Source: an uncultured delta proteobacterium (GTDB lineage: Bacteria; Myxococcota_A; Polyangia; Polyangiales; Polyangiaceae). From it: DNA of 64,000 nucleotides. The DNA is taken from NCBI GenBank assembly GCA_963782055.1, contig CAWAIF010000003.1, positions 5,216,001 through 5,280,000 of the forward strand, read 5' to 3'. The notes beneath the pieces were generated by a model. The model ran no database searches, was not told the origin of the DNA, and was given only the letters and a program-made list of their open reading frames with translations. How positions within the stretch are numbered: the stretch's first letter is position 1; every line of letters begins with the position of its first letter. A program made the translations under genes and the position numbers. Shown here one piece after another: positions 14,907 to 60,148 of this stretch.

Positions 14907-14908
14907 GT

Positions 14909-19648: not shown

Positions 19649-19662
19649 GGCGTCGCTGTCCT

Positions 19663-23412: not shown

Positions 23413-23419
23413 GCCCCCG

Positions 23420-28667: not shown

Positions 28668-29024
28668 GCGTACCGCCTGAGGATGCGGGCCGCAATCGAG
28701 CGAGTGAGTCGCATTTGCGGCGACGTCTTCTGGGGGCGGCCGCACGGGGCGTACGGCGGGAGGACGCCGGAGGAGGTGTATGCCGGGCGCGAGGCCGCCG
28801 CCGGGCATCTCGAACGCCTCGTGCTCTTCGACAACCGGCTTCGCTGGTGGTGCTTCTCGTAGCGACAGGCGCCGGAGAGGAAGTCGGTCGGGCGCCTCGG
28901 TCTTTGACATGGCGGTCTCGCGGGTGAGGGAGGGCGGGAGACGTGTGGGCGGAGAGGGCGCGATGGCGCGATTTCGACGTGACGGCTCGATGAGGAGGCT
29001 CGGTAGGCTTGGTGGGGTACTACA
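28668..29024. repeat. Partial copy of the RHS-associated intergenic IS-remnant repeat
   Basis: Similar to 31796-32148, 34751-35100 and (inverted) 48897-49162. Confidence 0.8.
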
Positions 29025-29064
29025 CTCGCTGAGATACTACGCATGTCGTGGCGCTAACCAACCA

Positions 29065-29658
29065 CTAACCCTTTGCGCGAAGCCATTGCGCCCCGACATG
29101 GTCAAGATCGACAGTCCACGTGGCACCAGCAAATATCATCGGAATCGCGTGAGCCTCGCCGGGCACTTGCACGTCACCAACTATGCCGTTTTCGTCGCGC
29201 AAGTCGACCTCACACCCGACACGCTTCAGCATTGCGACGACAGGATCAGACGAGATGGCGGCGCAGTGCTGGACCTGAAACACCCGGTGCAGCACTCTGT
29301 TTGAAGATATCATGCGTAGGATGACAGAGAACTGAACCTTAAACGCATCGATCGCGGACTCGAACGTGCTGATGCGCCCTGGAAACGTCGCGCGGAATAG
29401 TCGACCCGCGTCGGTGTCATCGACACTGGCGCTTAGCATCGCCTCAGCCTTCTGCGTCTCGCCAAACCTCAGGAGCAACTGGCACAGGCGGAGAACATCT
29501 GCATCTGAGTCCGTCCCTGCAGCAAGCTTCGCGCCTATGCGTTCAATCTCTTTCGCAGCCGAGGGGTCCACCGCTCGAATTGCGGTTACGTTGATGCCGC
29601 CGATTGACGCGGCCGGGATGGGTGAAAACCTGCGGCTATCGTCTTGAGACATGCTCAC
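29065..29658 (-). CDS. Candidate immunity protein of orphan RHS module 2
   Basis: Overlaps the stop codon of the RHS ORF. Confidence 0.65.
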   Translation of the reverse strand: MSMSQDDSRRFSPIPAASIGGINVTAIRAVDPSAAKEIERIGAKLAAGTDSDADVLRLCQLLLRFGETQKAEAMLSASVDDTDAGRLFRATFPGRISTFESAIDAFKVQFSVILRMISSNRVLHRVFQVQHCAAISSDPVVAMLKRVGCEVDLRDENGIVGDVQVPGEAHAIPMIFAGATWTVDLDHVGAQWLRAKG

Positions 29659-31526
29659 CTCCGACCTGGTATGTGAAGTCTCGCGACGGGATTATCCCGC
29701 CCCATTGCACCGACGTACCCCCGATTGTTCAGTTCGCTCCATTGACCGTGAACGTCGCGAACATACTTGTGCCAATGCCCTCCGCCTCCGGCTTCAGGAT
29801 CGAAGTCTACCTCGTAAAGCCGCGTCCTACCTCCAGAGAGACGCTCCAATCGCTCGAACCCAACTCTACCTGTCGCTGTTTTTGGAAGTTCGGCAAACCC
29901 CGCTTCGGTGAGCTTCGGCCGAACCGAGCGCAGGCTTTGGTTGAATAGGTCGAGGTCTATCCCGGGTGCCCGTACACGTACGCCAACGGGGAATTCGTCT
30001 CCGACGGGCGGAGGCCTCCGGCCGATGGCTCCTTCTGTATCACCTGCTAGTTCACCGAGGTCCCCTACCTCTCCTTGGCCCGAGACGAAGACAAGCGCAA
30101 GATTGAAAACTCCTGACGCGGCCTTGCCGGCGCCTTCACCCCTTTCGCCTTGGGTAGCGGCGCCGGTAGCGGTGGCCAGCCCACTCTGAATCGTGTCTGC
30201 AATGGATCCAATAACTGCGAATAGCTCACGTCCAGGGTTGTAGGTTATGAATGCGGCCTTGAGGTATGACTTCAGTGCGCCGCCCAGGTCACCTGCCGTG
30301 AGCTTGTCCAGTACCTCAGTACCAGGCCGGGCTTGCGTCTTGAGGGTCCTTGTGGAGATCCATCCGGTTTGATGCTCGATGAAGCCGCTGATAACGGACC
30401 CTCCCCAGGACTCCCATTGCCCGTGAACCGTCGCGCCGCGTAACTGATCGGTTCGTGGTGCGGATTGCTCCATCTTGATGGCCGCGGCAACATGTGCGGG
30501 ATCGAGCTTCGGTTGGTGTAATGAAGTGTGTTTCGGTATCGGCTTCGGCCTCGCCTTACGTGCCGTGAATGGTATGTATGCTTGAAGGAACGCGGCCGCC
30601 GTGGCAAGATGTGCCGCTTGACCAAACTGTGCTGCGAGCCTCTTTCGGAGACCCTGCACGTTTGGATCCGTGTCCTGGCGCCCGTCTGGATCGACGAGAG
30701 TGGTAGGCCGGTTTCGCACGTAAGCGTAGGCGTTGTCGACGCCGCGGCCCGACGGATCTACCGCCGTCCACCTGCCGAGCCACGCCGCATAGTACCTCGC
30801 CCCGTAGTAATGCAGCGCGGTCTCCTCGTCCCTCTCCTTGCCATTGTACCGGTACCTCCGCTTGCTCACCTCCCCGGTCTCCGACCGGAACGACGTCGCC
30901 CCGAAGGCGAAGTACTCTTCGTACGAGATGATGCTGCCGTCCTCCTTGACCTCGACGCAGGTGGACTCGAGCTGGTCGGCGAGCTGGTAGCGCTGCCGCG
31001 AGGTGGGCGAGGTCACGGTGCTCCCGCCCGTCACCGTGAGCGTCTCGACCATCGCGATGCGCCGCACGTCGTCCATGACGTGCAGGGTCTGTCGCTCCTC
31101 CTGCACCGTGGCGGTCCCGCCGGAGACGGTCGACTCCCGCCAGATCTCGTACCCGCCGAGGTAGATGCGCTCGTCGCGCAGGGCGCTCGTCTTGTCCCAG
31201 ACCTTGCGCACGCGCTGGCCGGCGGAGTCGTACACGAAGTAGACCGTACCACCTCCGCCGAGGTCGGCACTCTGCATGCGGTCCGCCCAGTCCCACGCGA
31301 TGGTGGACAGGTGGGGCATGGCCGTCATGTTGCCGCGCTCGTCGTGGTCGTAGGTGCCGGAGTAGGGGCCGCCGGAGGGGTCGCCGGGCATCTCGGTCGT
31401 GGCGAGCTTGTTGGAGGAGGAGTCGTAGGTGTAGTGGCGGTTCCAGTTGGCGCTGGTGGCGGTGTGGAACATCCCGAGGATGTTGCCGACCTCGTCGTAG
31501 TCGTAGGTCTGGGTGTACGAGCGCAT
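29655..31526 (-). CDS. Orphan RHS core + C-terminal toxin module 2
   Basis: RYNGKERDEETALHYYGARYY...DPDG followed by a unique C-terminus. Confidence 0.88.
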   Translation of the reverse strand: MRSYTQTYDYDEVGNILGMFHTATSANWNRHYTYDSSSNKLATTEMPGDPSGGPYSGTYDHDERGNMTAMPHLSTIAWDWADRMQSADLGGGGTVYFVYDSAGQRVRKVWDKTSALRDERIYLGGYEIWRESTVSGGTATVQEERQTLHVMDDVRRIAMVETLTVTGGSTVTSPTSRQRYQLADQLESTCVEVKEDGSIISYEEYFAFGATSFRSETGEVSKRRYRYNGKERDEETALHYYGARYYAAWLGRWTAVDPSGRGVDNAYAYVRNRPTTLVDPDGRQDTDPNVQGLRKRLAAQFGQAAHLATAAAFLQAYIPFTARKARPKPIPKHTSLHQPKLDPAHVAAAIKMEQSAPRTDQLRGATVHGQWESWGGSVISGFIEHQTGWISTRTLKTQARPGTEVLDKLTAGDLGGALKSYLKAAFITYNPGRELFAVIGSIADTIQSGLATATGAATQGERGEGAGKAASGVFNLALVFVSGQGEVGDLGELAGDTEGAIGRRPPPVGDEFPVGVRVRAPGIDLDLFNQSLRSVRPKLTEAGFAELPKTATGRVGFERLERLSGGRTRLYEVDFDPEAGGGGHWHKYVRDVHGQWSELNNRGYVGAMGRDNPVARLHIPGRR

Positions 31527-32148
31527 GGAGGAGGGATGCCCCTCCGGGCGCCATGCTCGGGCTCGTGCTCGCCGTCGCGCGTGCCGTCCGTGGGTGCATG
31601 ATCACGGACTACGGCACGCACGACGGCTTGCGCGCGAGCCCTGCGCGTGGCGCCCCTCCCCTCGATGTCGCGCTCGCGCGCGCCATCGGGGAGGCTGGTC
31701 GGCTGCACGGTGCGGACCTCGGCGCGGGGAACAGGCAATCGCCAGCTGGTGCCGGGGGAGGCTTGCTCCTAGGCCACTATCGAGGTACGCCTACGGCGTA
31801 CCGCCTGAGGATGCGGGCCGCAATCGAGCGAGTGAGTCGCATTTGCGGCGACGTCTTCTGGGCGCGGCCGCACGGGGCGTACGGCGGACGGACGCCGGAG
31901 GAGGTGCATGCCGGGCGAGACGCCGTTGCCGGGCACCTAAAACAACTCGTGCTCTTCGATGGCCGGCTGCGGCGGTGGCGCTTCTCGTGGCGCCCATCGC
32001 TGGAGAGGAAGTCGGTCCGGCGCCTCGGTTCCTTGACATGGCGGTCTCGGGCGTGAGGGGAGGACGGGAGACGTGTGGGCGCGCAGGGGGCGCGAGTTCG
32101 ACGTGATGGATTGACGAGGAGGCTCCGTAGGCTTGGTGGGGTATTACA
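31527..32148. repeat. RHS-associated intergenic repeat (degenerate integrase-core IS remnant)
   Basis: Similar to 34485-35100; encodes RPHGAYGGRTPEEV; ends GGGGTATTACA. Confidence 0.75.
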
Positions 32149-32241
32149 CGGGGCGGACCTCGGCGCCGGAGGGCTTGCTCCTAGGCGACTATCGCGGTAC
32201 GCATATGGCGTACCGCCTGAGTACTGCAGGGAGAGGATCCT

Positions 32242-32625
32242 TCATTCGGGCGCGACGAATTCCGAATAGCGCTCACTGGAGTACTTCCCACGCCAGCCCT
32301 CCGAAGGCCCGATGTACCAGCCGGCCAGCTCTCCCATGCCGTCAGAGGTAAGGTCGACAATGTCGCCCTCAGTGGTCTTCAACTGGAGATGGAGTGTACC
32401 ATTATCAATGGCATCGAGTAGATAATATATGGCGTAATCAATGCAGTCTGGCGCCACGACTTTGGCACATTCACTGTCCGGACCAATGCCCTTAGACTGC
32501 CAGCGTTTCCCGATCGCCGAGTGCCGGCCTGGATCACGGTTGTGATCACAGTCATGGACGGCGCGATCCCGAACCTCTGCGACCAAGATTCGGCCGAATT
32601 CCTCGATCGACTTATTTGACATCAT
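32242..32625 (-). CDS. Candidate immunity protein of orphan RHS module 1
   Basis: Overlaps the stop of the RHS ORF, low GC. Confidence 0.7.
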   Translation of the reverse strand: MMSNKSIEEFGRILVAEVRDRAVHDCDHNRDPGRHSAIGKRWQSKGIGPDSECAKVVAPDCIDYAIYYLLDAIDNGTLHLQLKTTEGDIVDLTSDGMGELAGWYIGPSEGWRGKYSSERYSEFVAPE

Positions 32626-34484
32626 GAACCCCAGGGTATACGAGTCGGGCCTTTAACGCCAGACGCTTTCAAGGCACTAATGGCACGCGAGACAGTCTGT
32701 CCAGCAAGGTCCCGATTCAGGCCGCCCTTGACGAGCGCAGTCGTCTCGATATCTTGGACTGCTGCCCACGTCAACGGCCTGCCTGTCGCCGCGAACGCGC
32801 GATAGCCTTGCTGTTGCGCGGCCGTAACAAGTGGGTGTTCAACGCCAAGCCGGGCTAGCTCAGCGTTTGGGATCGCCAAGGCTTGCACCGGGTCATACGC
32901 CGGATCGCCCACGAAGGCACTCTTGGCGGGGACGTGGTGCCCACCGCCCGGTCCGCCGTACGGCTGAAGCTTGACGGGACGCTTCCCGATGGCTCCCTCC
33001 GTATCTCCCGCCAGCTCCGAGAGCGGACGCACATTCGGTTCGCCAGCGCGCAGCCCAAGGAAGAACAGCGCCAGACTTCCGAAGGCCACCACTTCGCGAG
33101 CGGCCGAACGTGCGGCGTCAACGTCTGATTGACCCGTGCCGGCGGTCGCCGCCTCGCGGTTTACCGTCTTCACGTTCTCCACGAGTCCGCGGGCAACCGT
33201 GCGTGCAGTCGCAATTGGATTGTAATGATGGTACCAGGCGCTGCCGTAAGCCTGGAGCGCTCCTCCAAGATCGCCCTCGCCGACGCGAAGGTAGACTTGG
33301 CGGAGGGGTTCCGCTTGTTGCTCAAGCCCGCCCCCAACGACGCGTACTGCCTCATTCACGAAGGCTTGTGCCGGCGTCTCTGGCTTTGGTGTTGGAGCCT
33401 TTGGTGTGACGCGTACTGTCGCCTGTCTAAATTCCTCCGCCTTGAGGGCGGTCGCAACCTGCGTGCGGTCGAGCTTCGGCTCGGGCCGTGAAGGCTGACC
33501 TTGTGTTGGTGTTGTCGCGGCCCGGTGCGCTGTGAGCGGGATGTACGCCTGAAGGAACTGAGCTGCCTTCGCGAGCTCCGTGTCGTGTTTGAACTGCGCT
33601 GCGAGGCGCTGCTTAAGGTTCGGATCCGTGTCCTGGCGCCCGTCTGGATCGACGAGAGTGGTAGGTCGGTTTCGTACGTAGGCGTAGGCGTTGTCGACAC
33701 CGCGTCCGGACGGATCTACCGCCGTCCACCTCCCGAGCCAAGCCGCGTAGTACCTCGCGCCGTAGTAATGCAGCGCGGTCTCCTCGTCCCTCTCCTTGCC
33801 GTTGTACCGGTACCTGCGCTTGCTCACCTCCCCGGTCTCCGACCGGAATGACGTCGCCCCGAAGGGGAAGTACTCCTCGTAGGAGATGATGCTCCCGTCC
33901 TCGGTGAGCTCGACGCACGTGGACTCAAGCTGGTCGGCGAGCTGGTAGCGCTGCCGTGACGTCGGCGAGGTCACGGTGCTCCCGCCCGTCACCGTGAGCG
34001 TCTCGACCATCGCGATGCGGCGCACGTCGTCCATGACGTGCAAGGTCTGGCGCTCCTCCTGCACCGTGGCGGTCCCGCCCGAGACCGAGGACTCCCGCCA
34101 GATCTCGTAGCCCCCGAGGTAGATGCGCTCGTCCCGGAGCGAGGAGGTCTTGTCCCAGACCTTGCGCACGCGGTTCCCCGCCGCGTCGTAGACGAAGTAG
34201 ACCGTACCACCTCCGCCGAGGTCGGCACTCTGCATGCGGTCCGCCCAGTCCCACGCGATGGTGGACAGGTGCGGCATGGCCGTCATGTTGCCGCGCTCGT
34301 CGTGGGAGTAGGTGCCGGAGTAGGGGCCGCCGGAGGGATCGCCGGGCATCTCCGTCGTCGCGAGCTTGTTGGAGGAGGAGTCGTAGGTGTAGTGGCGGTT
34401 CCAGTTGGCGCTGGTGGCCGTGTGGAACATCCCGAGGATGTTGCCGACCTCGTCGTAGTCGTAGGTCTGGGTGTACGAGCGCAT
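32622..34484 (-). CDS. Orphan RHS core + C-terminal toxin module 1
   Basis: RHS core; C-terminus contains GHHVP (possible nuclease). Confidence 0.88.
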   Translation of the reverse strand: MRSYTQTYDYDEVGNILGMFHTATSANWNRHYTYDSSSNKLATTEMPGDPSGGPYSGTYSHDERGNMTAMPHLSTIAWDWADRMQSADLGGGGTVYFVYDAAGNRVRKVWDKTSSLRDERIYLGGYEIWRESSVSGGTATVQEERQTLHVMDDVRRIAMVETLTVTGGSTVTSPTSRQRYQLADQLESTCVELTEDGSIISYEEYFPFGATSFRSETGEVSKRRYRYNGKERDEETALHYYGARYYAAWLGRWTAVDPSGRGVDNAYAYVRNRPTTLVDPDGRQDTDPNLKQRLAAQFKHDTELAKAAQFLQAYIPLTAHRAATTPTQGQPSRPEPKLDRTQVATALKAEEFRQATVRVTPKAPTPKPETPAQAFVNEAVRVVGGGLEQQAEPLRQVYLRVGEGDLGGALQAYGSAWYHHYNPIATARTVARGLVENVKTVNREAATAGTGQSDVDAARSAAREVVAFGSLALFFLGLRAGEPNVRPLSELAGDTEGAIGKRPVKLQPYGGPGGGHHVPAKSAFVGDPAYDPVQALAIPNAELARLGVEHPLVTAAQQQGYRAFAATGRPLTWAAVQDIETTALVKGGLNRDLAGQTVSRAISALKASGVKGPTRIPWGS

Positions 34485-35100
34485 GGAGGAGGGATGCCCC
34501 TCCGGGCGCCATGCTCGGGCTCGTGCTCGCCGTCGCGCGTGCCGGCGGTGGGTGCATGATCACGGACTACGGCACGCACGACGGCTTGCGCGCGAGCCCT
34601 GCGCGTGGCGCCCCTCCCCTTGATGTCGCGCTCCCGCGCGCCATCGGGGAGGCTGGGTGCTGCATGCGGCGGACCTCGGCGCGGGGAACAGGCAGTCGCC
34701 AGCGGGTGCCGGGGAGGCTTGCTCCTAGGCCACTACCGAGGTACGCCTCCGGCGTACCGCCTGAGGCTGCGGGCCGCAGTCGAGCGAGTGAGTCGCGTTT
34801 GCGGCGACGTCTTCCGGGACCGGCACGGGGCGTGCGGCGGCAGGACGCCGGAGGAGGTCCACGCCGGGCGCGAGGTCGCCGCCGGGCACCTGGGACGGCT
34901 CGTGCTCTTCGACGGCCGGCTGCGGTGGTGGCGCTTCTCGTAGCGATAGGCGCCGGAGAGGAAGTCGGTCCGGCGCCTCGGCCCTTGACATTGCGGTCTC
35001 GCGCGTGATGGGGGGGACGGGAGACGTGTGGGCGCAGGGGGTGCGATCTTCGACGTGACGGATCGATGAGAGGCTCCGTAGGCTTGGTGGGGTATTTACA
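34485..35100. repeat. RHS-associated intergenic repeat
   Basis: Similar to 31527-32148. Confidence 0.75.
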
Positions 35101-35369
35101 CCCTCCTGCGCGCCCTGCTCCTGGAGCATCCCCCGCTCGCCGACGGCCCCGACCCCCCGGGCGAGTCCGACGTCTCCCGCCGCGCTCGCGCCCTCGTCCG
35201 CGGCGCCCTGCACCTGCGTCGCGCGCTGGTCGCTTACCGTCACGCTGTCGACCGCGCCCTCGATGACCCCCACCACGACCTGCCCTTCTGACTGCGCCCC
35301 TCGATTCTCGTGCTCGACGCTCCCTCCATCTTCGTGACCACGCTCACCACGTCGAGCAGGGGGAGGCAA

Positions 35370-35618
35370 TCAATCATCATCACCGTATGCTCCGGGCCCC
35401 TCGACATGCTCACCGGCAGCCAGAAGTTCGCGCGCTGAGTCTTCGGCTGCCTCCAAGGAAGGGAACTCAAATGTGAGTACCACCGGCCCCTCGACCCCTT
35501 CGTCTGGGCCTTCATGATACGTCATCTTGCCACCGTGCTTCGCGACGGCCTGCGAGAGTCTCGCTTCCCGTTCATGGTCAATCGGTGGCTTATAGTACAA
35601 CTCAAACATAAAACTCAT
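35370..35618 (-). CDS. Small acidic protein, candidate immunity protein of the main RHS toxin
   Basis: Immediately downstream of the toxin C-terminus. Confidence 0.6.
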   Translation of the reverse strand: MSFMFELYYKPPIDHEREARLSQAVAKHGGKMTYHEGPDEGVEGPVVLTFEFPSLEAAEDSARELLAAGEHVEGPGAYGDDD

Positions 35619-35660
35619 CGGCCTTCGCCCGCATCTGGAACGCCCGCCGCCAATGGTTTA

Positions 35661-38600
35661 TCAATGACGGAAATAGATGTGCCCAAAACTTCCTCCTGTG
35701 CCCTTCTTTCCAGTTGTCCAGTCAGCGTATTTGATGTGCGGGAGAGTGTTCCCGACCTCGGGTTCGGCGGGCTGAACCTGGAACCAGTTCTTCTCGCCGC
35801 CGGGCTTCGGGTACTCCATTCCCGCCTTGGCCTCGGGCAATTCCGTTGCGCCCGGCATTGCCTCTGCGATTAAGCGACGAGCATCTGCGAGACTGTCAAC
35901 GATAACATTGAAACGTCCGGGGCCCTTCACGCGCTTGACAGCCTCGCTCCAACTGATTGCGTTCTTTGGGATGCCCGCAGTCTCATCTCCCAGTACCGTC
36001 GGTCCCCGTGGACGCTTCCCAATGGCTCCCTCCGTATCACCCGCCAGCTCCGACATGGGACGCACGCCCGGCTCGCCCGCGCGCAGCCCAAGGAAGAACA
36101 GCGCCAGACTTCCGAAGGCCACCACTTCGCGAGCACCTGAACGCGCGGCGTCTACGTCCGATTGGCCCGTGCCGGCGGTGGCGGCCTCGCGGTTCACCGT
36201 CTTCACGTTCTCCACGAGTCCGCGCGCAACGGTGCGCGCAGCCGCAATGGGATTGTAATCATGGTACCAGGCGCTGCCGTAAGCTTCGAGCGCTCCGCCC
36301 GGATCGCCCTCGCCGATGCGAAGGTAGACTTGGCGGAGGGGTTCCGCTTGTTGCTCAAGCCCGCCCCCAACGACGCGTACTGCCTCATTCACGAAGGCTT
36401 GTGCCGGCGTCTCTGGCTTTGGTGTTGGAGCCTTTGGTGTGACGCGTACTGTCGCCTGTCTAAATTCCTCCGCCTTGAGGGCGGTCGCAACCTGCGTGCG
36501 GTCGAGCTTCGGCTCGGGCCGTGAAGGCTGACCTTGTGTTGGTGTTGTCGCGGCCCGGTGCGCTGTGAGCGGGATGTACGCCTGAAGGAACTGAGCTGCC
36601 TTCGCGAGCTCCGTGTCGTGTTTGAACTGCGCTGCGAGGCGCTGCTTAAGGTTCGGATTCGTGTCTTGCCGTCCGTCCGGATCGACGAGCGTGGTAGGTC
36701 GGTTTCGTACGTAGGCGTAGGCGTTGTCGACACCGCGTCCGGACGGATCTACCGCTGTCCATCTTCCGAGCCACGCGGCGTAATACCGCGCCCCGTAGTA
36801 ATGCAGCGCGGTCTCCTCGTCCCTCTCCTTGCCGTTGTAGCGATACCTGCGCGCACTGACGTCGATGCTCCCGCTTGCTGACCGGAACGACGTCGCGCCA
36901 AACGGGAAGTACTCTTCGTAGGAGATGATGCTCCCGTCCTCGGTGAGCTCGACGCAGGTGGACTCGAGCTGATCGGCGAGCTGGTAGCGCTGCCGTGACG
37001 TCGGCGAGGTCACGGTGCTCCCGCCCGTCACCGTGAGGGTCTCGACCATGGCGATGCGCCGCACGTCGTCCATGACGTGCAAGGTCTGGCGCTCTTCCTG
37101 CACCGTGGTAGTCCCGCCCGAGACCGAGGACTCCCGCCAGATTTCGTAGCCGCCCAGGTAGATCCGCTCGTCCCGGAGCGAGGAGGTCTTGTCCCAGACC
37201 TTGCGCACGCGCTGGCCGGCGGAGTCGTACACGAAGTAGACCGTACCACCTCCGCCGAGGTCCGCGCTCTGCATGCGGTCCGCCCAGTCCCACGCGATGG
37301 TGGACAGGTGCGGCATGGCCGTCATGTTGCCGCGCTCGTCGTGGGAGTAGGTGCCGGAGTAGGGGCCGCCGGAGGGATCGCCGGGCATCTCCGTCGTGGC
37401 GAGCTTGTTGGAGGAGGAGTCGTAGGTGTAGTGGCGGTTCCAGTTGGCGCTGGTGGCGGTGTGGAACATGCCCAGGATGTTGCCGACCTCGTCGTAGTCG
37501 TAGGTCTGCGTGTAGGCCCGCATGGCCTGGGTGTCGTTGGGGTGAGGCACCGTCGACAGGGGGCTGTCGAGGTCGGTCATGGTCTCGGGCTGGGTCTGGC
37601 TCGGGTGCTCCCGGCCGCTCGCCGACGTGAGGCGGTAGATGGGATCGTACTCGTACTGGCGGTCGCCGGTGACGGGGCTCGAGCCGGAGAAGTAGAGGGT
37701 CTGGTCGGCGCCGTCGTCGATCTCCACGATCTTGCCGACGGGATCGTAGGTGAGCGTCGCGTCCTGGAGGGTGGCGCTGTCGCTGGCGCGGGTGGTGGTC
37801 TGCTCGGTGAGGCGGAAGGTTTCTGCCTCGTAGGAGTACGTGGTCGTGAATGCGGCGCTGGAGGAGCCGGCGTAGTCGATCTGGGTGCGCTGTCCGCGTG
37901 CGTTGTAGTCGATGTTTCTCACGAACGCCGTGGCGGTGCTCGCCCCGAGGATCTTGACGTCGACGGCCTCGAGGAGGTTGGCCTCGTTGTAGGTGGGGAG
38001 GTAGACGCTGGAGTCTGGTGTGGTGATGGAGGTGACGCGGTCGAGGGCGTCGAAGGTGCTCGACGTGGTGAAGGTCTCGCTGGCGAGGTAGGTGGCGGCG
38101 GCGGACTCGATGGCGGAGAGGGTGGAGATGCCGTCGAGATCGTCCCAGCTGGCGGTGGTGGTGTAGTCGGCGATGAGGACGCGGCTGTGCTGGAGGAGGT
38201 TTCCCTTGAAGTCGAACGCGTCGTGGGTGGCGGCGCCGGCGCCGTCGTAGACGCGGTAGACGCGGCCGGCCATGTTGACGCTGGTGGGATCGGAGAGGAT
38301 CTCTCCGTAGAGGGTGAGCTCGGCGAGGAACTCGCTGCCCGCGCCGAGGGTGACGTAGAGCTTGGTGGGTCTTCGGAGGGCGTCGAAGTCGTGGCGGACC
38401 ATGACGCTGCGGCTGTTCCACGCTCGGAGCGCCTCGCCTGATGTCGTGAAGAGGGCGGAGCTGGTGCCGGCCTCGGCGCTGACGCTCTGGATGGCGTGGC
38501 CGCCGGGGCAGTAGGTGTGCGCGAGGGTGGTGTTGCCGCGGGCGTCGGTGAGGGAGAGGGTGTTGCCCTCGATGTCGAGCTCCAGCGTCGTGTCGTAGTA

Positions 38601-40606
38601 GTCGTGGGTGGAGCTCGAGCCGTTGTCTTGCTGGGTGAGGAAGGTCCTGCCGAGGGTGTCGGCGTGGGCGAGGGTCGGGGTGCCGTCGCACGCGGCTGCA
38701 AGGGTGGCAGCGCGGTGGAGTGGATCGCCGCTGGAGAGGGCGATGTTGGTGGCGTACCACTGGGAGTCGGTGACGGTGTCGTTGGGGTCCCAGGTCTCCT
38801 GGTACCAGGGGGTGAAGACGACCTTGGAGTAGGTGCCGTTGGGGAAGTCGGTGCGTACGAGGCGGCTGAGGGCGTCGTAGCGCATGATGGGGGTGACGCC
38901 GCTCGAGGCCAGAATCGCTCTCGAGGTCGTAGCCGCCGTCGGAGGCGAAGTAGGGCTCGTACTGCTTGATGGGGTTGCCCTTGTTGTCCCAGACGGTGCG
39001 GCCGTTGCCGACCCAGCGCGGGTTGTCCTCGGCGTCGGGCTCGGCTTGCACCTTGCGCAGGACCTCCTTGCCGTTGCCCGCGGTGTACGAGTAGCTCTCC
39101 TGCCAGACGGCGGTGCCACCGTGGTCGATGCGGTGGTAGGCGTGGCCGTAGACGGGGGTGGGGGTGGAGCCGCCCTCGGTGTCGTGCCAGGAGGAGAGAT
39201 CGTATTCGAAGTAGGCGGTGGGGTCGGTGAGGGTGTCGCCGTCGGAGCCGCCGCTCTTGCCCATCTCGGCCATCTTGACGACCATGCCGAGCTCGTCGAA
39301 GGCGACGGCGACGCGGTTGCCGTTGGGGTCGGTGGTCTGGTAGGGGCCGAGGACGCGGTAGTCGTTGTCGAAGGTGGTGACGAGGTCGAGGGCGGCGGTG
39401 GTGTCGGAGGTGTGGGCCTCGGTGGGGAGCAGATCGTAGGAGTCGAAGACGACCTTGGAGCGGTTGCCGAAGGGCTCGGTGATCTTGGTGACGAGGTAGA
39501 AGTGGTCGGGGTCGTAGGTGGGGACGCTGGAGATGGCCCAGTAGTCGGAACCGACCGCGACGTAGCCGGCGTCGGTGCTGAGGATGGTGCTGGTGACGGT
39601 GCTGCCGTAGACGCTGGTGACGAGGCCCCCGGTGAGGGCGAGCGAGAGGGTGTGGTCGAGCAGGGCCTTGGACTCGATGGAGCCGAGGGAGAGAGTGGCG
39701 GAGAGATCGTCCTTGATGTAGATGGCCTGCGACTTGTGTAGGAGGCGCTTCTGGAGGCCGGAGGTGGGGGCAGTGTCGTAGGCGATCTCGCTGGCGGATG
39801 ACGCGGCGGTGGCGACGGTGTCGAAGTCGAGGAGGCCGCTCGAGTAGCTGATGCCGGTGAGCTCGAAGCTGCGCGCTTCCTTGGGCACGGCGATGCGGCG
39901 CCAGGTGTCCTGATCGTCGACGTGGATGACGTCGTGCTCGGCGAGGGAGACCCAGAGCTTGTTCTGCTCGTCGTAGCTGGAGCTGGTGCGGCGGGGGTAG
40001 CCAACGGCGGCGGCCTGGGTGACGACGCCGTAGTCGTCGACGGCGAGGGTGAAGGCGTGCTGGACGCGGGGGTCGGTGGCGTCGCGCTCGTAGTGGTAGC
40101 TCACGGCCTCGCGGGGGTGGGTGAGGTAGACGCCGTGGCGCGTACCGGCGGCGGGGGGCTGGAGCTGGCGGACCTCGTAGCGGTGCTCGGCGACGGAGTA
40201 GGGCTTGTCGGCGTCGGAGGTGCCGTCGTCGGCGTAGAGCTCCTGGCGCAGGACGCTGCCCTTGAGGGCGCGGGCGGCCTCGCGGGCCTGCTGCGGGCTG
40301 TCCGGCGTGAAGTTGGTGAGCAGGGTGCGGTCGAGGACCGTGGCGGAGGAGTCGCCGCTGAAGTACTCGCCGGAGAAGGCGGCGGCGATGTCGGCGGCGT
40401 CCTTCCAGGCGCCGGTGTGGAACCAGGTCCTGGTGAGGACGGGCGGGAGCTGGTACTCGCCGCTCTGGTCGGGCAGGAGGTTGGAGGGGAAGGTGCCGCT
40501 GCCGACGTCGTCGCTGAAGGACTCGGCGTCGCTTTGCTCGACGTAGCCGAAGCCCCTGAACTCGCGCTCGGGGCCGTCGTAGTAGCCGTGGCGGTAGCTG
40601 TAGGTG
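35661..40606 (-). pseudogene. 5'-truncated TcdB/TccC-like (toxin complex B/C + RHS) protein; frameshift near 38913
   Basis: Begins mid-gene at repeat R6 with YSYRHGYYDGPEREFRGFG; reading switches from the 36646-40104 frame to the 35661-40004 frame; RHS core and variable C-terminus present. Confidence 0.85.
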
Positions 40607-40706
40607 GCGCATAGGAAATCCTAGCGCGGTCGGGCGCGAAAGTTTACGGAATCCATCTTATGCGAAGTGGGGCCGTCCGGTGTCACTGGAAGGACGGACC
40701 AGGGTG
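40607..40706 (+). repeat. Array repeat R6 (intact, variant A)
   Basis: Full 100-mer. Confidence 0.98.
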
Positions 40707-44055: not shown

Positions 44056-45500
44056 CATGCCCGATCTCTTAAGCACCGATCGCCCCAAGTTTGAGGGCGA
44101 TTCGTTTCCTGGAGCGTGAAGGTTGTCGTTCGCGTGCCAGAGCGACGAGTGCCGCGCCCACGGTGGTCACGACGGCAGTCCACGCGGCGGTGCTCAGGGA
44201 GACGAGGGCGTCGACCAGGTCCCGCGCGTAGGCGCGCACGACGTGCAACGTCGCCAGGGGGCGCAGTTGCTCGAGAGGGACGTCGCGCGCGAGTGCAGCC
44301 TGGATCCTGACCGAGCGCACGAGCGCGTGGGCGAGCATCGCGCCGTAGGTGAGCGCCTTGATCGCGTGGGGATCGGCGGTGAAGGAGCGGCCGAGGTCGG
44401 CGGTCTGCTTCAGCTCGCGAAAGAGCAGCTCGATCAGCCAGCGGAGTCGGTAGGTCTGGATGATCTGCCGTGGCGAGAGCACGCTGCGCGGCACGGTGGT
44501 CAGGTACCAGCGGATGACGGTCGACTTGTGCGCGAGTCCCACGAGCCGCAATGCGACGGTGTCCTTGCCCTTGCCCCACGTCACGTCGAGGTCGAAGATC
44601 GTCCCGCGCTTGCGCGACACGCTCTGCAGGTAGTAGCCAAGCGACCAGTTGTGGAGCGGGGTGTGGCCGTTCTCCGAGATGTGCGCGGTCACGCGTACCT
44701 TCGCCGTGGTCTTGAGGCGCATCAGCACGTGCGCGCCGGCAGCCTTCGCCTGGGTGAACAGAGCGCGCTCGAAAAAGCCGAGGTCGAAGAGGTAGAGCAC
44801 CCCGCGCGTGAAGCTCGGGACCAGCTTCCGCCACAGCGGCGTCTCCGACGCGGTCTCCGCGTCGGAGACGCCGTGCTCGAGCAGGCCGGTCTTGATGCTG
44901 TAGCCCATCACCCACTTGGTGCCGGCCTTGCCCTTGGTGCATCCCGGCAGCAGCTCGCGCCCGCGCGGTGGCACGCGCTGCCCCGTACCGTCGTAGACCC
45001 GCACGTCCTCGAAGCGGGCGAGCGGCCCGCTCAGCTCCAGGCCCGCCGCCTTCGTCACCGACGCCACGAGGTGCTCGAGCGCCGCGCGGAAGAACGCCGC
45101 CGCCGACTCCTGCTTGAACCGCTTCTGGAACGGGCACGGGCGCATGAAGCCGAAGCGCCTCACGAAGATCGCCCGCAGCGACTCGAACGACAGCGTCTGG
45201 CCCGCGAGGAACCCCTCGACGACCGTGAGCACCAGGCGGAACGCGGTGGCGCGCCGCTGCCGCGGGTTGTAGCCGGTGCGGCCCCGAAGCTCGTCGATGA
45301 CCGCCGGCGTGAAGGTCCGCTGCAGCTGCTCCTCCACCGCGCTCGCCTCTTCGCTCGGGTCTGGACGGCTGCTCGTGGCTCGGGTAGCTCTCGTCGTCAT
45401 CGGGCGTCCTCTCCTTGTTGGTGTCGCAACCGAACAACGAGAAAGGCGCCCGATTTATTTCCATCATTCCGCCACGTTATGTCCAAAGGATCTGGCCATG
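44056..45500 (-). mobile_element. IS4-family-like insertion sequence (1445 bp)
   Basis: 10-bp TSD CCCCCGCTCG at 44046-44055 and 45501-45510; imperfect IRs CATGCCCGATCTCTT / AAGGATCTGGCCATG; empty site at 11307-11316. Confidence 0.93.
44069..45400 (-). CDS. IS4-family DDE transposase
   Basis: YDGT, FDLGF and YRLRWLIELLFRELKQ (YREK signature). Confidence 0.9.
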   Translation of the reverse strand: MTTRATRATSSRPDPSEEASAVEEQLQRTFTPAVIDELRGRTGYNPRQRRATAFRLVLTVVEGFLAGQTLSFESLRAIFVRRFGFMRPCPFQKRFKQESAAAFFRAALEHLVASVTKAAGLELSGPLARFEDVRVYDGTGQRVPPRGRELLPGCTKGKAGTKWVMGYSIKTGLLEHGVSDAETASETPLWRKLVPSFTRGVLYLFDLGFFERALFTQAKAAGAHVLMRLKTTAKVRVTAHISENGHTPLHNWSLGYYLQSVSRKRGTIFDLDVTWGKGKDTVALRLVGLAHKSTVIRWYLTTVPRSVLSPRQIIQTYRLRWLIELLFRELKQTADLGRSFTADPHAIKALTYGAMLAHALVRSVRIQAALARDVPLEQLRPLATLHVVRAYARDLVDALVSLSTAAWTAVVTTVGAALVALARERQPSRSRKRIALKLGAIGA

Positions 45501-47903: not shown

Positions 47904-48003
47904 GCGCATAGGAAATCCTAGCGCGGTCGGGCGCGAAAGTTTACGGAATCCATCTTATGCGAAGTGGGGCCGTCCGGTGTCACTGGAAGGACGGACCAGG
48001 GTG
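47904..48003 (+). repeat. Array repeat R7 (intact, variant A)
   Basis: Full 100-mer. Confidence 0.98.
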
Positions 48004-49162: not shown

Positions 49163-49262
49163 GCGCATAGGAAATCCTAGCGCGGTCGGGCGCGAAAGTT
49201 TACGGAATCCATCTTATGCGAAGTGGGGCCGTCCGGTGTCACTGGAAGGACGGACCAGGGTG
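49163..49262 (+). repeat. Array repeat R8, the native oriIS-side end of the ISCR-like element
   Basis: Full 100-mer, 36 bp downstream of the transposase stop codon. Confidence 0.97.
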
Positions 49263-49298: not shown

Positions 49299-51020
49299 TC
49301 AGGCGGCGGGGGGGTCGTCTGCGGCGAGGTCGAGGAGGTCGGTCGGATCGCGGGCGCGGGCAGGTGCGGGGGCTTCGGCGGGGAGGTCGAGAGCGCGGAG
49401 GATGCGGACCACGGCGGCGTCGTCGGTGATGACGGCGAGGGGACGGAGGCGGCCCCCGCAGGTCGGGCACTGGAGCACGTCGATCTCGAAGGTGCGGCGG
49501 AGCAGGCGCGGCCAGTCGATGCGGGATGTCGCTGCGTAGAGAAGGCCGCGGCGAAGGCGCTCCCAGTGGCCCACGGCGACGACGTTGGGTGCGAGACGGC
49601 GCACGTGGAGGTCTGCGGCGGCCGCGGGTGCGGCGGGCTCGGGCGCCGGTGGCGGGACCGGGAGAGGGAGGGCGAGCTGGCCCGCGGGCGGCGCGCTCGT
49701 GGTGCTGGCCGCCCCCGCGGGATCGCGGCGCACGGGGTCGGGCCTCTCTGCCGCATGTGTGGTGTCGCGATGCTCCCGCCTCTCGATGGGCTGCCCGGGT
49801 TTCGCGGGGACGAGGGGTCGCGGAGGACGCGGACGCCCGCAGGACGGGGCGGACGGCTCACGCGGCCTGGGGACCACGAGCTTCCGCCACGACAATCGGG
49901 GGGCGAGGACACCGTGGTAGCGGACAAGTGGGTAGCGCGGCGGCGGGACGAGCGCGGCGACGCGGGCGAGGAGCTCCACCGGAGTGAGGATCATGTGCTT
50001 CGCCTTGCCCGCGCGCGGCTGCTTGACGCGGTAGGCGACGCGGCCGTCGCGCAGGAGGCGTAGGCGCGAGAGGGCGAGCGCGGGGCGCAGGGCGTAGCGG
50101 CAGAGGCGCTCGCGGGCGAGGTCGTCCCGGACGCGGACGCCGGCGTGGAGGTTGAAGCCGGTGTCCTCCACCGCGCGGTGAGCCATGGCGGGGGCGGCTG
50201 CGTCGTCGTCGTCGTCGTCGCCGGGGTCGATCGCGAGCTTCAGCACCTTCGGACGCTGCATCGCGAGAGCCACGCAGGCGTCGAGGGCGCTCGGCTCGAC
50301 GTCGAGGTCCACCGGATCCTCGGAGAGGTGACCGTGGCGGCGGAGCCACGCGATGGCGCGACGGCTGACGGCGGTGACGAGCTGCTGCAGCTCGGCGCGG
50401 GTGGGCATCGGCAAGGGCACGAAGCCGAGGGAGCCGTCCGGCTCGCGCAGGAAGACGCCGTCCATGACGATGGTGTGGAAGTGGACGTTGAGGTTGAGGC
50501 TTCCCCCGAAGCGCTGGACGCAGGTGACCGCGCCGCTGGCGACCTGATCGAACCCCGCTGCGCGGGCGCGGCGGCGGTGGCTGGCGAAGATGGCGTCCGC
50601 GAAGATGCGCGCGAGCGCGCGGAGCACCACGGGGTCGAAGGCGGCGAGGCGGCGGAGCTCGTACGGAAGGGACAGGACGTACTGGCGGAGGGGGACGTCC
50701 GGGAGGACGCGGTCGACCAGGTGGGCGGCGGTGTTCGCCATGCGGCGTCCCGCGCAGCTCGGGCAGACGCCGCGGCCCTTGCAGGAGAACGCGACGAGCA
50801 GATCGTGGCCGCAGGCGTCGCAATGCGCGCGCAGGAAGCCGTGGCGAAAGACGCCGCACTTCAGGTAGCCGCGGAGATCCTGCTCGACGTAGCGGGGGAC
50901 GGGCTTGCTGTAGCTCTCGCGCGCCCAGCGGAGGAAGGTCTGCAGGCCGGCGCGGACGAGGCGGTAGAGCGGCGTCTCGGTAGGCTGCCGAGGCGCGTAC
51001 GGCGCGGCGAGGGACGACAC
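49299..51020 (-). CDS. ISCR/IS91-family rolling-circle (HUH, single Tyr) transposase
   Basis: CDAC...FSCKGRGVCPSC Zn domain, QRFGGSLNLNVHFH (HUH), RERLCRYALRP, LVRYHGVLAP; GTG start inferred. Confidence 0.9.
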   Translation of the reverse strand: MSSLAAPYAPRQPTETPLYRLVRAGLQTFLRWARESYSKPVPRYVEQDLRGYLKCGVFRHGFLRAHCDACGHDLLVAFSCKGRGVCPSCAGRRMANTAAHLVDRVLPDVPLRQYVLSLPYELRRLAAFDPVVLRALARIFADAIFASHRRRARAAGFDQVASGAVTCVQRFGGSLNLNVHFHTIVMDGVFLREPDGSLGFVPLPMPTRAELQQLVTAVSRRAIAWLRRHGHLSEDPVDLDVEPSALDACVALAMQRPKVLKLAIDPGDDDDDDAAAPAMAHRAVEDTGFNLHAGVRVRDDLARERLCRYALRPALALSRLRLLRDGRVAYRVKQPRAGKAKHMILTPVELLARVAALVPPPRYPLVRYHGVLAPRLSWRKLVVPRPREPSAPSCGRPRPPRPLVPAKPGQPIERREHRDTTHAAERPDPVRRDPAGAASTTSAPPAGQLALPLPVPPPAPEPAAPAAAADLHVRRLAPNVVAVGHWERLRRGLLYAATSRIDWPRLLRRTFEIDVLQCPTCGGRLRPLAVITDDAAVVRILRALDLPAEAPAPARARDPTDLLDLAADDPPAA

Positions 51021-51249
51021 CCGCCGTCCGTTGCGCGCCCCGTGCCAGCGCGCGCGGCCGCAAATTCGCCGCGCTCGAGGCGGGAGGGGGTGGCCCCGGA
51101 CAGTCAGGCCGGACACCCCGGACACCCGAGCCAAGCGAGGGGGCCCCTGAAGGGCGGCTCGGAGATCCGGACGAGCGCGGGTGCCTTCGAGCGGAGCCGT
51201 CGGTGCCGGCGGCGTGCTCCCCGCTCGCGGGCGGGTTAAGACTCCATCG

Positions 51250-58056: not shown

Positions 58057-60090
58057 TGGTAGATCCTTACACCTTGGCCGCCCTACGGCGGCGGTTGGAG
58101 TCAAGACCCCCTCTCAAACCGTGCGTGCGGATTTCCCGCACACGGCTTACCGGTGGTCTCTCGTGACGCGGCATTACGCGGCCTCCGGGTAGCGGATGGT
58201 CCCGCGCAGGCGGTGGAGCCCGAAGCCTTCGACGAAGTAGTCGCGGGTCCAGCGCTCGGCTTGTCCGGCCTTGAGCTTCGAGCCGGCCCGTTTCAGGCGC
58301 AGCGCTCGAAGCCGTTCGTACACGTACTCGTCGAGTCGGTTGAACTTCACGTCGGCGTTCCCGGTGCGAAAGTACTCGCCCCAGCCACGCAGCACGGGGT
58401 TGAGCTGCGCGACGACGTCGCGCAGGTCCGCGTGGCAGCGTGATCGCGGGGTGAGGTCCCTCACGCGCTGCCGGATCCGCTTCATCGCGCGAGCCGATGG
58501 CCAGCGCTGGAGGAAGTACACGCGTTTGCGCGACCTCTCCCAGATGGACCCGCTCAAGCGTTTCCGCAGGTGGCAGCCGAGGAAGTCGAACCCCTTCTTA
58601 CCCCAGGAGAGGTCCAGCTTCCTCGTCTTGTCCGGGTGCAGCTCGAGCCCGAGTCGCGTCATCACGTGCTTCACGCGAAGCTCGGCCTCGTCGACGTCAC
58701 GCTTCGTCCTGCACATCACGACGAAGTCGTCCGCATAACGAACCAGCTCGCCAAGATGCGCGCACCGCTTCGTCCACACGTCGTCGAGCACGGCGAGGTA
58801 GATGTTCGAGAGCAGCGGCGAGATCACCCCGCCCTGCGGCGTGCCGCTGGAGGGGTTGGTCACCGTGCCTTCGTCCATCACCCCCGCCGTGAGCCACTGC
58901 CGCAGCAGCTTGAGCACCCTCCGGTCCGAGATGCGCCGCTCGACGAGCTTCATCAGCTTGTCGTGATCGATGCTCCCGAAGTAGTCACGGATGTCGGCGT
59001 CGAGCACGTGGTTGTACCCCTTCGCGCCGAGCTTCCTCAGCGTCTCCAGGGCGTCCGTCGCGCTCCGCCCGATACGGAAGCCGTACGAGCACGAGCGAAA
59101 GCTCGCCTCGAAGATCGGCTCCAGCACGAGCTTCGTCGCCATCTGCACCACCCGGTCTCGGACCGTCGGGATCCCAAGCGGCCGCTTCTTCCCATCGGCC
59201 TTCGGGATGTACCGGCGCAGCACCGCTGCCGGCCGGTACCTGCCTGCACGGAGCACGTCATGGATCTCTCCGAGGAGTCGATCCACTCCGTACACCTCGA
59301 GCGCCGCGATCGTCTGGGCATCGACGCCCGCGGCTCCCTTGTTCCTCCTTACCCGCTTCCACGCTTCCGCGAGGACGTCACGCCTCGCGATGCGGTCATA
59401 CAGCGCGTGGAATCGGCGCTCCGGATGCCGCTTGGCCGCGGCACACAGCCGGCGTTGCAGTTGTCGCACTTTGTCCATGGGCTGTCGCCGATGGGGGTGG
59501 TTGGGACCGGTCTCGCCGGCCATGCCCTCGCGCTTACCTGCTCCGCCGACACGACCACTGCAGGGGTCTTTCCCTCCTGCCGCGTTGTTCTTCACGGCGT
59601 TCGTTCGCGAAGCTCGCGCCTCGCTCTTCGGTACAGTGACCCCCTCGGACTCCCGCTGCGCAGCGGCCGACTTCGCCTCTGGCTTATACGACGCGCCTTG
59701 CCCCGACGAGGGCGACGCAGACGGGCCTCCCGAGTTCCGCACTCCTCCTTGCACGCGTGCTGCGCTCCCTACCCCGCCGGGACCGACGGCGCGTTTCGGA
59801 TCTGGCGCCGCCGATATTGCCTTCGCCGCGACATGATCGGCTCGGCTCCCGGTTTGTAGATCTGACGAGGCTGCAAGCTTCACTTCATGTTGCGGCCCGC
59901 GTGCTCGCTCGGTCCGTGGACCCTTTCGACGCCCCGCTCGGCCGACGGGATCTCTCCCGCTCGGCTGGGGCCTGCTACCCGGCGCTCCGACGCTTACCGG
60001 TGCGGGACTCTCACCCGCTGGAGAAGCGCAGCTTGAGGCAGGTCGTTCGTCGGGCATGCCCGACGGACGACCTGCTTCTTCACGGCGCAC
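58055..60090 (-). mobile_element. Complete group II intron
   Basis: 5' GTGCG at 60090; domain V AGCCGTGTGCGGGAAATCCGCACGCACGGTT; domain VI ending CTACCAAT; RT ORF inside. Confidence 0.88.
58174..59523 (-). CDS. ltrA: Group II intron reverse transcriptase/maturase (no endonuclease domain)
   Basis: RPLGIPTVRDR, GTPQGGVISPLL, YADD, FDFLG, LRGWGEYF; start may instead be 59478. Confidence 0.93.
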   Translation of the reverse strand: MAGETGPNHPHRRQPMDKVRQLQRRLCAAAKRHPERRFHALYDRIARRDVLAEAWKRVRRNKGAAGVDAQTIAALEVYGVDRLLGEIHDVLRAGRYRPAAVLRRYIPKADGKKRPLGIPTVRDRVVQMATKLVLEPIFEASFRSCSYGFRIGRSATDALETLRKLGAKGYNHVLDADIRDYFGSIDHDKLMKLVERRISDRRVLKLLRQWLTAGVMDEGTVTNPSSGTPQGGVISPLLSNIYLAVLDDVWTKRCAHLGELVRYADDFVVMCRTKRDVDEAELRVKHVMTRLGLELHPDKTRKLDLSWGKKGFDFLGCHLRKRLSGSIWERSRKRVYFLQRWPSARAMKRIRQRVRDLTPRSRCHADLRDVVAQLNPVLRGWGEYFRTGNADVKFNRLDEYVYERLRALRLKRAGSKLKAGQAERWTRDYFVEGFGLHRLRGTIRYPEAA

Positions 60091-60148
60091 CATGACCTCG
60101 ATCCTAGCCGAAGCCCAGCACGTGCGCTCGCATGCCGGACGGAGCGTC

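Follow-up and report, generated by a model that had tools for sequence, protein, structure and literature searches.

Genes and repeats at the locus

The window analyzed here, the whole stretch of 64,000 nucleotides (nt), lies on contig C3 of the GC-rich genome of an uncultured delta proteobacterium of the family Polyangiaceae. It contains tnpS, a gene for a 573-amino acid (aa) HUH transposase of the IS91 family, and a series of copies of a repeat that also adjoins the 3' end of this gene. The repeat unit is exactly 100 nt long (49163-49262), a length that is fixed by 19 full copies in the genome and by a tandem pair with no spacer between its members. Our analysis suggests that this unit, referred to below as the module, is probably the minimal origin end (oriIS) of an ISCR2-like rolling-circle element of the IS91 family in which a private Xer recombination site is embedded. 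The tnpS element and the full module copies of the window are as follows.

49299-51020, minus strand: tnpS, gene for the 573-aa ISCR2-like IS91-family HUH transposase (open reading frame (ORF) 49302-51020, stop codon 49299-49301)
51021-51127, minus strand: tnpS upstream region and far (presumed terIS) end; the plus strand ends ...CCGGACACCCCGGACACCC and the homology of the two intact copies stops at 51127
49163-49262, minus strand: probable 100-nt oriIS module of the tnpS element, within the block common to three tnpS copies
47904-48003, minus strand: solo module copy, 100% identical
40607-40706, minus strand: solo module copy
28568-28667, minus strand: solo module copy, variant G14/A43
11861-11960, minus strand: solo module copy; a duplicated PD40-Sel1 segment stops directly before its nt 1

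These five full copies are 96-100% identical, are accompanied in the window by five half copies, and are spaced so that the distance between modules is 1.2-12 kb. A genome-wide blastn search with the repeat returned 66 high-scoring segment pairs, 19 of which were full length at ≥95% identity, and two further full-length copies were divergent (87% and 75%). All 19 full copies are confined to three clusters on contig C3, at 2.73 Mb, 4.41-4.49 Mb and 5.18-5.27 Mb (the window), and their orientation is uniform inside each cluster, the lone exception being an inverted copy at 4411929. The head-to-tail pair without a spacer is found at C3:4433280-4433479. The arrays reach about 80 kb in size. Intact solo modules occur within arrays only, while modules split by an integrase-bearing element, described below, occur outside them as well. 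The blocks between the modules of an array (also 1.2-12 kb) are multi-gene, have mixed gene directions and consist of foreign genes, among them a type I restriction system, a kinase gene, RHS/Tc-like toxin genes and Sel1/PD40 genes. No Rfam family was found over the repeat; the sole Rfam matches in the window are parts of a group II intron at 58-60 kb.

In the direction of the transposase gene (minus strand) the module presents hairpin 2, a dif-like core, a GC-rich stretch and a terminal motif, in the form CACCCTG-hairpin 2-dif mimic-TTCGCGCCCGACCGCGC-TAGGATTTCCTATGCGC, after which it ends. Its parts, in the order of the plus strand, are the following.

49163-49183, minus strand: hairpin 1 with the terminal oriIS motif, minus strand GCGCTAGGATTTCCTATGCGC up to the end
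49197-49207, plus strand: XerD-like arm AGTTTACGGAA; the host dif has AGTTTACATAA, the outer 7 nt are identical, and every copy has GG or GA in place of the inner AT
49208-49213, plus strand: 6-nt central region TCCATC (TGTATC in the host's own dif)
49214-49224, plus strand: XerC-like arm TTATGCGAAGT, 10/11 to the own dif arm TTATGCGAATT
49226-49256, no strand assigned: hairpin 2, GGCCGTCC and GGACGGACC separated by 13 nt with CTGGAA

The transposase and the origin end

The product of tnpS matches the Pfam families Y2_Tnp (1.8e-27) and Zn_Tnp_IS91 (7.8e-16). Its best NCBIfam model, 'ISCR element clade Ia', gives 274.8 bits, under the cut-off of 925, and it is about 41% identical over aa 8-387 to the transposase of ISVsa3 (ISCR2), which is present on thousands of plasmids. 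The genome has three tnpS copies (100%, 98.6% and 90% identity), one per array and located at the array end. In 3/3 copies the module begins 36 nt past the stop codon, or 39-41 nt from the tnpS match if the stop is excluded, and the block common to the two intact copies extends from the outer end of the module to 51127.

We compared the module with real ISVsa3 DNA and with the surroundings of tnpS relatives. The DNA past the ISCR2/ISVsa3 gene ends ...GGTCCAAAGCTGTTGGACTTGGGTGAAAAGGGCGTTTATTCTTCCTATACGT, that is, with a GTCC..GGAC-type hairpin followed by a terminal TTCCTAT motif, and this terminus (...TTCTTCCTATACGT) shares its ..TTCCTAY.. motif with the hairpin 1 end of the module. The tnpS relatives comprised 46 loci in metagenome-assembled genomes (MAGs) of Myxococcota, Spirochaetota, Gemmatimonadota and Acidobacteriota, 20 of which contained the 3' end of the gene and at least 100 nt downstream; in 13 of these 20 the terminal motif recurs within alignable surroundings, a hairpin and a core followed by ..TTCCTAY.C. 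Extra module copies lie downstream of the tnpS homologues at other MAG loci, L053 and L056 having identical ones and L064 and L070 weaker ones. A first-pass annotation of this DNA, made from its letters alone, had described nt 1-21 as a hairpin resembling an oriIS at the expected place downstream of the transposase gene, and had proposed alignment with known oriIS sequences as a check. The alignment bears the description out: because the terminal ..TTCCTAT.. motif is common to ISCR2 and to the 13 homologue loci, the oriIS reading of nt 1-21 holds, and the gene adjoining it is indeed of the HUH type. Among the marks of an oriIS, the module has the position 3' of an IS91-family HUH gene, the terminal sequence shared by the family and the subterminal palindromes; a flanking target tetranucleotide is absent.

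Hairpin 1 folds as it had been drawn, at -5.3 kcal/mol (plus strand z -2.45, equaled by 6 of 200 shuffles; minus strand z -2.91, equaled by 3 of 200). The second hairpin, which had been placed at nt ~65-95 and labeled 'ter-like', also exists: nt 64-94 fold with 6+2 bp at -8.3 kcal/mol (z -1.83 plus, -1.42 minus). It is the label that fails. In ISCR2 the corresponding position, some 30 nt inward of the oriIS terminus, is occupied by a GTCCA..TGGAC hairpin, and the far end of the tnpS unit at 51127 is unlike nt 95-100 of the module. Because of the ISCR2 hairpin, hairpin 2 is, from the sequence comparison, best read as a second subterminal palindrome belonging to the origin and not as a 'ter' end. 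In the alignment of divergent module copies the CTGGAA loop and GGAC are invariant, and one divergent copy has a compensating stem, GGTTCG..CGC/GCGAACC. The entire 100-mer is not unusually structured (z -1.3 and -1.4) and the 28-mer between the hairpins does not fold by itself.

As a side observation, CGCATA at the origin terminus (module nt 2-7) is the inverted complement of TATGCG in the XerC-like arm (nt 53-58), and the two pair in the minimum free energy structure of the single strand. This pairing could be due to chance, or could be a means of drawing the nick site and the crossover site close to each other.

The chromosomal dif and the core of the module

Sixty relatives of the host were searched with the repeat. 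Nine of them gave a single short match each, to nt ~30-65, reading AGTT.AC.TAA-N6-TTATGCGA. This dif pattern of the relatives, applied with up to three mismatches to the host's own genome, found 17 matches, of which 16 were module copies and the other was C3:3558740-3558767 (AGTTTACATAATGTATCTTATGCGAATT); the reversed control pattern found 0. The C3:3558740 site falls in the 10-kb bin, at 3.56 Mb, where the 7.0-Mb contig has its maximum of cumulative GC skew, and it is the sole match to TTNACATAAN6TTATG in the genome. On account of both its position and its uniqueness we take it to be the dif of the chromosome. The genome also encodes XerD (343.9 bits against a cut-off of 329.6) and a XerC-like protein (322.5 bits, under the cut-off of 335.15). 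The modules, being multi-copy and located elsewhere, are not the chromosomal dif, and the arrays lie 0.8-1.7 Mb from it.

The first-pass annotation had noted that nt 35-62 have the 11-6-11 layout of a dif site and had suggested a comparison with the host's predicted dif. The comparison takes the claim further than layout. The module core agrees with the own dif at 23/28 positions (XerC arm 10/11, XerD arm 9/11) and with the common dif form of the relatives at 25/28. The XerC-like arm is identical (11/11) to that of the dif of genomes G004, G017, G020 and G060 and is the most conserved part across divergent module copies. Four species could be compared with their own modules, as listed below.

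G000 (own genome): host dif AGTTTACATAA-TGTATC-TTATGCGAATT; module AGTTTACGGAA-TCCATC-TTATGCGAAGT; XerC arm 10/11
G001 (same genus): host dif ...TTATGCGATCT; module exactly TTATGCGATCT; XerC arm 11/11, including the host-specific ATCT
G004 (same genus): host dif ...TGCATC...; module AGTTTACGGAA-CGCCCG-TTATGCGAAGT; XerC arm 11/11
G017 (another genus): host dif AGTTTACATAA-CCCATC-TTATGCGAAGT; module ACTTCGCATAA (in the orientation of the transposase gene), then a degenerate partner arm; XerC arm 11/11

Where dif has TTAT, in the inner part of the XerD arm, no module has this sequence, and the module spacers differ from those of dif. In the G001 modules the spacer consists of 6-7 unrelated bases and the XerD arm has TTCT or ATCT where dif has TTAT; the central regions of the G004 (CGCCCG) and G001 (7 nt) modules are unrelated to the dif of their own hosts. 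G001 constitutes the lone independent test of host tracking, because the other three species have the same arm. A scan of the tnpS-homologue loci in G017 and G020 for dif matches of at least 19/28 found none, and a later motif search found the G017 core and nothing in G020. No dif-like insert is visible in ISCR2, in the ISVsa3 DNA downstream of the gene. Judged by these alignments, nt 35-62 are a mimic of the host's actual dif, and since the repeat imitates the chromosomal dif so closely, the element probably borrows the Xer recombinase of its host.

Joints at the core and at the ends of the module

Several modules are split by an element of 2.3-2.5 kb that carries a 281-aa tyrosine recombinase and a canonical IS91 transposase. 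In the window these are the following.

5391-7817, plus strand: module split by an integrase-IS91 element (left half 5391-5443, element 5444-7770, right half 7771-7817); integrase 5622-6467, IS91 transposase 6474-7433 with an internal deletion
22336-24954, plus strand: module split by a full-length integrase-IS91 element (left half 22336-22388, element 22389-24907, right half 24908-24954); integrase 22567-23412, 385-aa IS91 transposase 23420-24577
49-2415, plus strand: third integrase-IS91 copy (element 49-2368, right half-module 2369-2415), with a non-module left flank (GCGCACT/GGACGAAG)

The best models for the integrase are integron integrase and XerA/XerD, all under their cut-offs; the integron-integrase model TIGR02249 matched in two stretches with 198.9 bits (cut-off 265). 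The transposase scores 390.6 bits against the NCBIfam IS91 equivalog (cut-off 125). The element splits modules at one point, ...CATC/TT/GGACGAAG...CTCTTAC/TT/ATGCGAAGT (slashes mark the joints), which is always C51/TT/A54 of the module and, on the other strand, the border of the XerC arm and the spacer. Left ends adjoin a left half-module in 10/12 cases and right ends adjoin a right half-module in 10/11; two copies have a common non-module left flank, and one sits inside a divergent module with compensating changes in hairpin 2. G004 has a 76%-identical relative of the element at the identical position despite a different spacer. The ends of the element themselves resemble a diverged module, the right end being alignable to the left half of the module and the left end having a CTTCG..AA arm and a hairpin. 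From these junctions, the integrase-IS91 element uses the border of XerC arm and spacer as its specific insertion site, probably by means of its own Xer/integron-like integrase. The same internal deletion of ~200 bp (residues ~200-268) is present in the IS91 transposases of 1079-2035 and 6474-7430, compared with 23420-24574, and since it recurs at other genomic copies, the deleted copies have spread.

The ends of the unit can be located from a 4-kb PD40-Sel1 block that is present three times. Its homology stops at the base before nt 1 (46054 versus 11860) and begins directly after nt 100 (7818); in array 1 a segment of 3.1 kb separates nt 100 from the block. Taken together, the exact breaks of the PD40-Sel1 block and the fixed junctions of the integrase-IS91 element indicate that the unit ends and the core are real joints, so that the fixed repeat ends proposed from the letters alone turn out to be exact junctions, with a site-specific insertion point between them. 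The repeat variants at nt 14 and 43 are identical in the duplicated block and are uninformative as to which half travels with which cargo, and no second copy was found of the unique 1.85-kb segment 46055-47902. The array 1 segment (C3:2731519-2734655) codes for yet another IS91-like protein, the third, which is distant (36% identity with tnpS). A DDE_Tnp_1 insertion sequence (44056-45500, with a 443-aa ORF at 44072-45400) disrupts the Sel1-repeat gene in its second copy; the first copy (10173-11621) is intact.

G001 has a module family of its own, with units of 119-131 nt. Its arrays contain 25 matches, there are half copies that break within the core, and an array end is occupied by a tnpS homologue. 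No close homologue of the integrase was found in its 92%-complete genome, where the sole matches are Xer-like and 35-44% identical.

The dif-like core is interrupted by no fewer than four different elements, the majority bounded by terminal inverted repeats, at G001 loci L103, L105 and L107 and at C3:4450610-4452124 of our genome; their target duplications of 8-11 bp cover the spacer or the XerC arm. The dif-like core seems to attract unrelated insertion sequences.

Proposed mechanism and alternative explanations

The interpretation that we favor, and consider somewhat better than even, gives the module two roles: that of an oriIS nicked by the HUH transposase and that of a dif mimic serving the Xer recombinases of the host. 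The transposase would nick the bottom strand at nt 1 of the module and could run from one module copy to the next, in the manner of rolling-circle proteins between tandem origins, releasing circles of module and cargo. A rolling-circle protein terminates when it reaches a further origin placed in direct repeat. The position of nt 1 as a real joint would be accounted for in this way, by nicking at that base and copying from module to module. For IS91, only the last 82 bp of the oriIS end are reported to be required, and the active intermediate is described as a bottom-strand single-stranded DNA circle formed from oriIS (PMC13181058); for IS801, miniature right-end derivatives and capture of flanking DNA by one-ended transposition have been reported (PMC3189936). 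The dif mimic, in turn, would recruit the host XerC/XerD; its XerC arm is perfect, its XerD arm is damaged at the inner bases and its spacer is private. Because of this combination, the modules may be expected to recombine with one another, XerC first, and not with the chromosomal dif, and the private spacer and the damaged arm would shield the arrays both from dif and from efficient deletion by FtsK/XerD. Where a Xer-like integrase is present, it could recombine modules likewise.

A possible extension, which we put forward only tentatively, is that the arrays form an integron-like chromosomal cassette platform, in which the HUH protein copies out circles of module and cargo and host XerC/XerD insert or exchange them at the dif mimic. 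The private spacer and the damaged XerD arm would then prevent cross-talk of the array with dif and its loss during cell division. The integrase-bearing IS91 elements would then be parasites or helpers of the same site.

A number of observations weigh against the dual role. At nt 1 there is no fixed target tetranucleotide of the IS91 kind (CTTG/GTTC); the 19 left flanks vary, a purine at -1 being the sole constant. At the other end, nt 95-100 are unlike the far end of the tnpS unit (...CCGGACACCC at 51127), so that the dual role does not account for the inner border at nt 100. The two hairpins show weak covariation among 14 divergent module copies, which come from three species: 61.7% of cells are paired, and 29/500 shuffles reach as much. 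The tracking of the host by the core is based on four species, three of which share one arm. In the more distant tnpS clade, the stretch at the corresponding position bears no more than a loose likeness to a Xer site and, if it is one, has the flipped orientation, and searches of G062-G065 with the family dif pattern and with TTNACATAAN6TTATG did not find the host dif. Ordinary DDE insertion sequences with 8-11 bp target duplications also lie inside the module core, in G000 and in G001, so some of the apparent targeting of the core may simply reflect a tolerated or exposed site. Finally, the sole public runs identified, two marsh metagenomes, contained 0.06 of the sampled words each and gave short, low-depth contigs with unreliable joints.

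If rolling-circle transposition alone were at work, the arrays would be ordinary results of IS91/ISCR one-ended transposition and of 'oriIS sandwiches', in which miniature right-end derivatives bound captured DNA, and any binding of Xer proteins by the dif-like stretch would be passive or stabilising, with no part in moving cassettes. The joints exactly at nt 1 and nt 100, the existence of a tandem pair, the additional oriIS copies downstream of homologues in other genomes and the miniature right-end derivatives and DNA capture reported for IS801 (PMC3189936) all agree with this explanation, which nevertheless does not account for the perfect host XerC arm in four species next to an altered spacer and inner XerD arm, for an ISCR2 without such an insert, or for the restriction of all 19 intact copies to arrays. 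Nt 1 also lacks a flanking IS91-type target tetranucleotide, and we regard the explanation by rolling-circle transposition alone as unlikely. Less likely again, in our judgment, is the converse, in which XerCD or the integrase of an element builds the arrays at the dif mimic by site-specific recombination, as in integrons or in integrative mobile elements exploiting Xer (IMEX), and the transposase gene is a mere first carrier. The insertion of the integrase-IS91 element at one fixed core position in two species speaks for it, as do the expected resemblance of its circle junction to a divergent module, the closeness of its integrase to integron integrase/Xer models and the report of IS91-borne recombinases in an 'integron-like' subgroup (bioRxiv 10.1101/542381). 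Yet G001 has arrays and no close integrase homologue, the breaks of the duplicated block fall at nt 1 and nt 100, away from the core, and the conserved terminal motif and hairpin would have no role to play.

Two further explanations concern the nature of the repeat itself. Plasmid resolution sites follow the logic of XerC acting first at a site whose partner arm is altered, and a dif-like core with conserved flanks in direct repeats would suit a multimer-resolution site of the cer/psi type that resolves tandem or cointegrate rolling-circle products, the arrays being incidental. Efficient resolution of direct repeats would delete the arrays, however, and three of up to ~80 kb persist, which makes this explanation very improbable. 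We give the least credence of all to an integron attC-like site or an ordinary MITE (a miniature transposable element with inverted repeats). A direct-repeat array of ~100-nt units between gene blocks is what either would resemble, but the two halves of the module form no single long imperfect hairpin, the sequence has no RYYYAAC/GTTRRRY boxes and the integrase falls under the integron-integrase cut-off (198.9 versus 265 bits), all contrary to attC; contrary to a MITE, GCGCATAGG.. at one end and ..CAGGGTG at the other do not form inverted repeats, the flanks lack a duplication and the copies are not dispersed. The attC and MITE readings of the repeat, together with CRISPR-like and repetitive extragenic palindrome (REP)-like ones, were rejected on structure.

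Relation to known systems

The tnpS element resembles ISCR2 (ISVsa3) and other ISCR/IS91 elements in its HUH transposase with Zn_Tnp_IS91 and Y2_Tnp domains, in having its origin past the 3' end of the gene, in the subterminal GTCC..GGAC-type hairpin, in the terminal ..TTCCTAT.. and in the variable DNA beyond the origin side. It differs in the 28-bp host-dif mimic placed between hairpin and terminus, in the distance from stop codon to end (136 nt, against about 235) and in that its modules occur as many solo copies in long one-directional arrays, without a fixed flanking tetranucleotide. The miniature right-end derivatives of IS801 (Bardaji et al. 2011, PMC3189936) are likewise fragments of the origin end that are mobile and may carry adjacent DNA; as described there, they are scattered and bounded by a tetranucleotide like the left end of the insertion sequence, whereas the modules are confined to arrays and their inner border, CAGGGTG, is unlike the far end of the unit.

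The IMEX share with the module one good and one defective arm, limited spacer homology and, in the phages, an HUH replication protein acting between tandem origins. They are represented by CTXphi, TLCphi, VGJphi and the gonococcal island, which are reported to exploit XerCD via a dif-like site (PMC4439123, PMC6744903, PMC9226527). Unlike IMEX, the arrays lie at 2.73, 4.41-4.49 and 5.18-5.27 Mb and the dif at 3.56 Mb, and the carrier is an insertion sequence, not a phage; recombination of the modules with dif is unlikely because their spacer is private. The pdif sites of Acinetobacter alternate in orientation and are not known to have a transposase origin attached, while the modules are one-way and embedded in an oriIS. 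Common to both are gene modules bounded by XerC/XerD-type sites away from dif, as pdif modules are portrayed in PMC7399989 and PMC12907356. In GIsul2 a tyrosine recombinase, and not the ISCR protein, moved an ISCR-linked CR2-sul2 unit site-specifically; as reported (PMC9376610), its att site is the island's own, at guaA, with no dif mimic and not inside an oriIS. Integrons also have a one-directional cassette array beside a fixed gene, in which every cassette is followed by a conserved recombination site, and IS91-borne integrases are given as the nearest relatives of IntI (bioRxiv 10.1101/542381), but the arrays described here have no IntI, attI or attC structure and consist of multi-gene blocks of mixed direction.

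Our full-text searches turned up neither an IS91/ISCR origin that contains a dif-like site nor a dif-like cassette array anchored by an IS91/ISCR-type transposase. The first-pass annotation had known of no HUH origin combined with a dif-like site at all; for IS91 and ISCR this stands, while in its general form it does not, given that an HUH replication protein and a dif-like attachment site are reported to occur together in filamentous IMEX phages such as CTXphi (PMC4439123, PMC6744903). What is new is the combination of an ISCR/IS91 origin with probable Xer hijacking, each component being of a kind already known.

ISCR elements are major suspects in gene capture, including that of resistance genes, and the assembly of the DNA on their origin side is still debated; according to PMC6218425 and PMC9376610, none has been shown to transpose. 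A copy of dif embedded in the origin of a clade of ISCR2-like elements, in four species, ties rolling-circle origins to the Xer machinery in a concrete and testable way, and offers a possible route by which multi-gene blocks with restriction-modification, toxin and kinase genes pile up in ordered arrays. If the Xer recombinases are used, Xer hijacking would extend from phages and plasmid modules to insertion sequences, and there would be a second, non-integron way of building cassette arrays.

Other genes of the window

The cargo includes a complete type I restriction-modification set in one 10-kb block between two modules (13944-22057), with HsdR at 19691-22057, HsdM at 18200-19648 and HsdS at 16416-18200; HsdS has an internal 85-nt repeat, and a D12-class adenine methylase is encoded in the same block. 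A SocA/Panacea antitoxin-domain gene is found at 12520-13110. The region 28667-37169 consists of three tandem units of ~3 kb (89-93% identical), each with an ORF of the 620-aa class without a Pfam match, and the large ORFs beside them, 24908-27655 and 36649-40104, match RHS-repeat and TcdB_toxin_midC. The arrangement resembles a polymorphic-toxin locus equipped with spare cassettes for C-termini or immunity. A group II intron is found on the minus strand (58088-60093), in that part of the window which has no array, with Rfam domains at 59885-60020, 59771-59872 and 58088-58150 and a reverse transcriptase/maturase ORF at 58177-60093 (RVT_1, GIIM).

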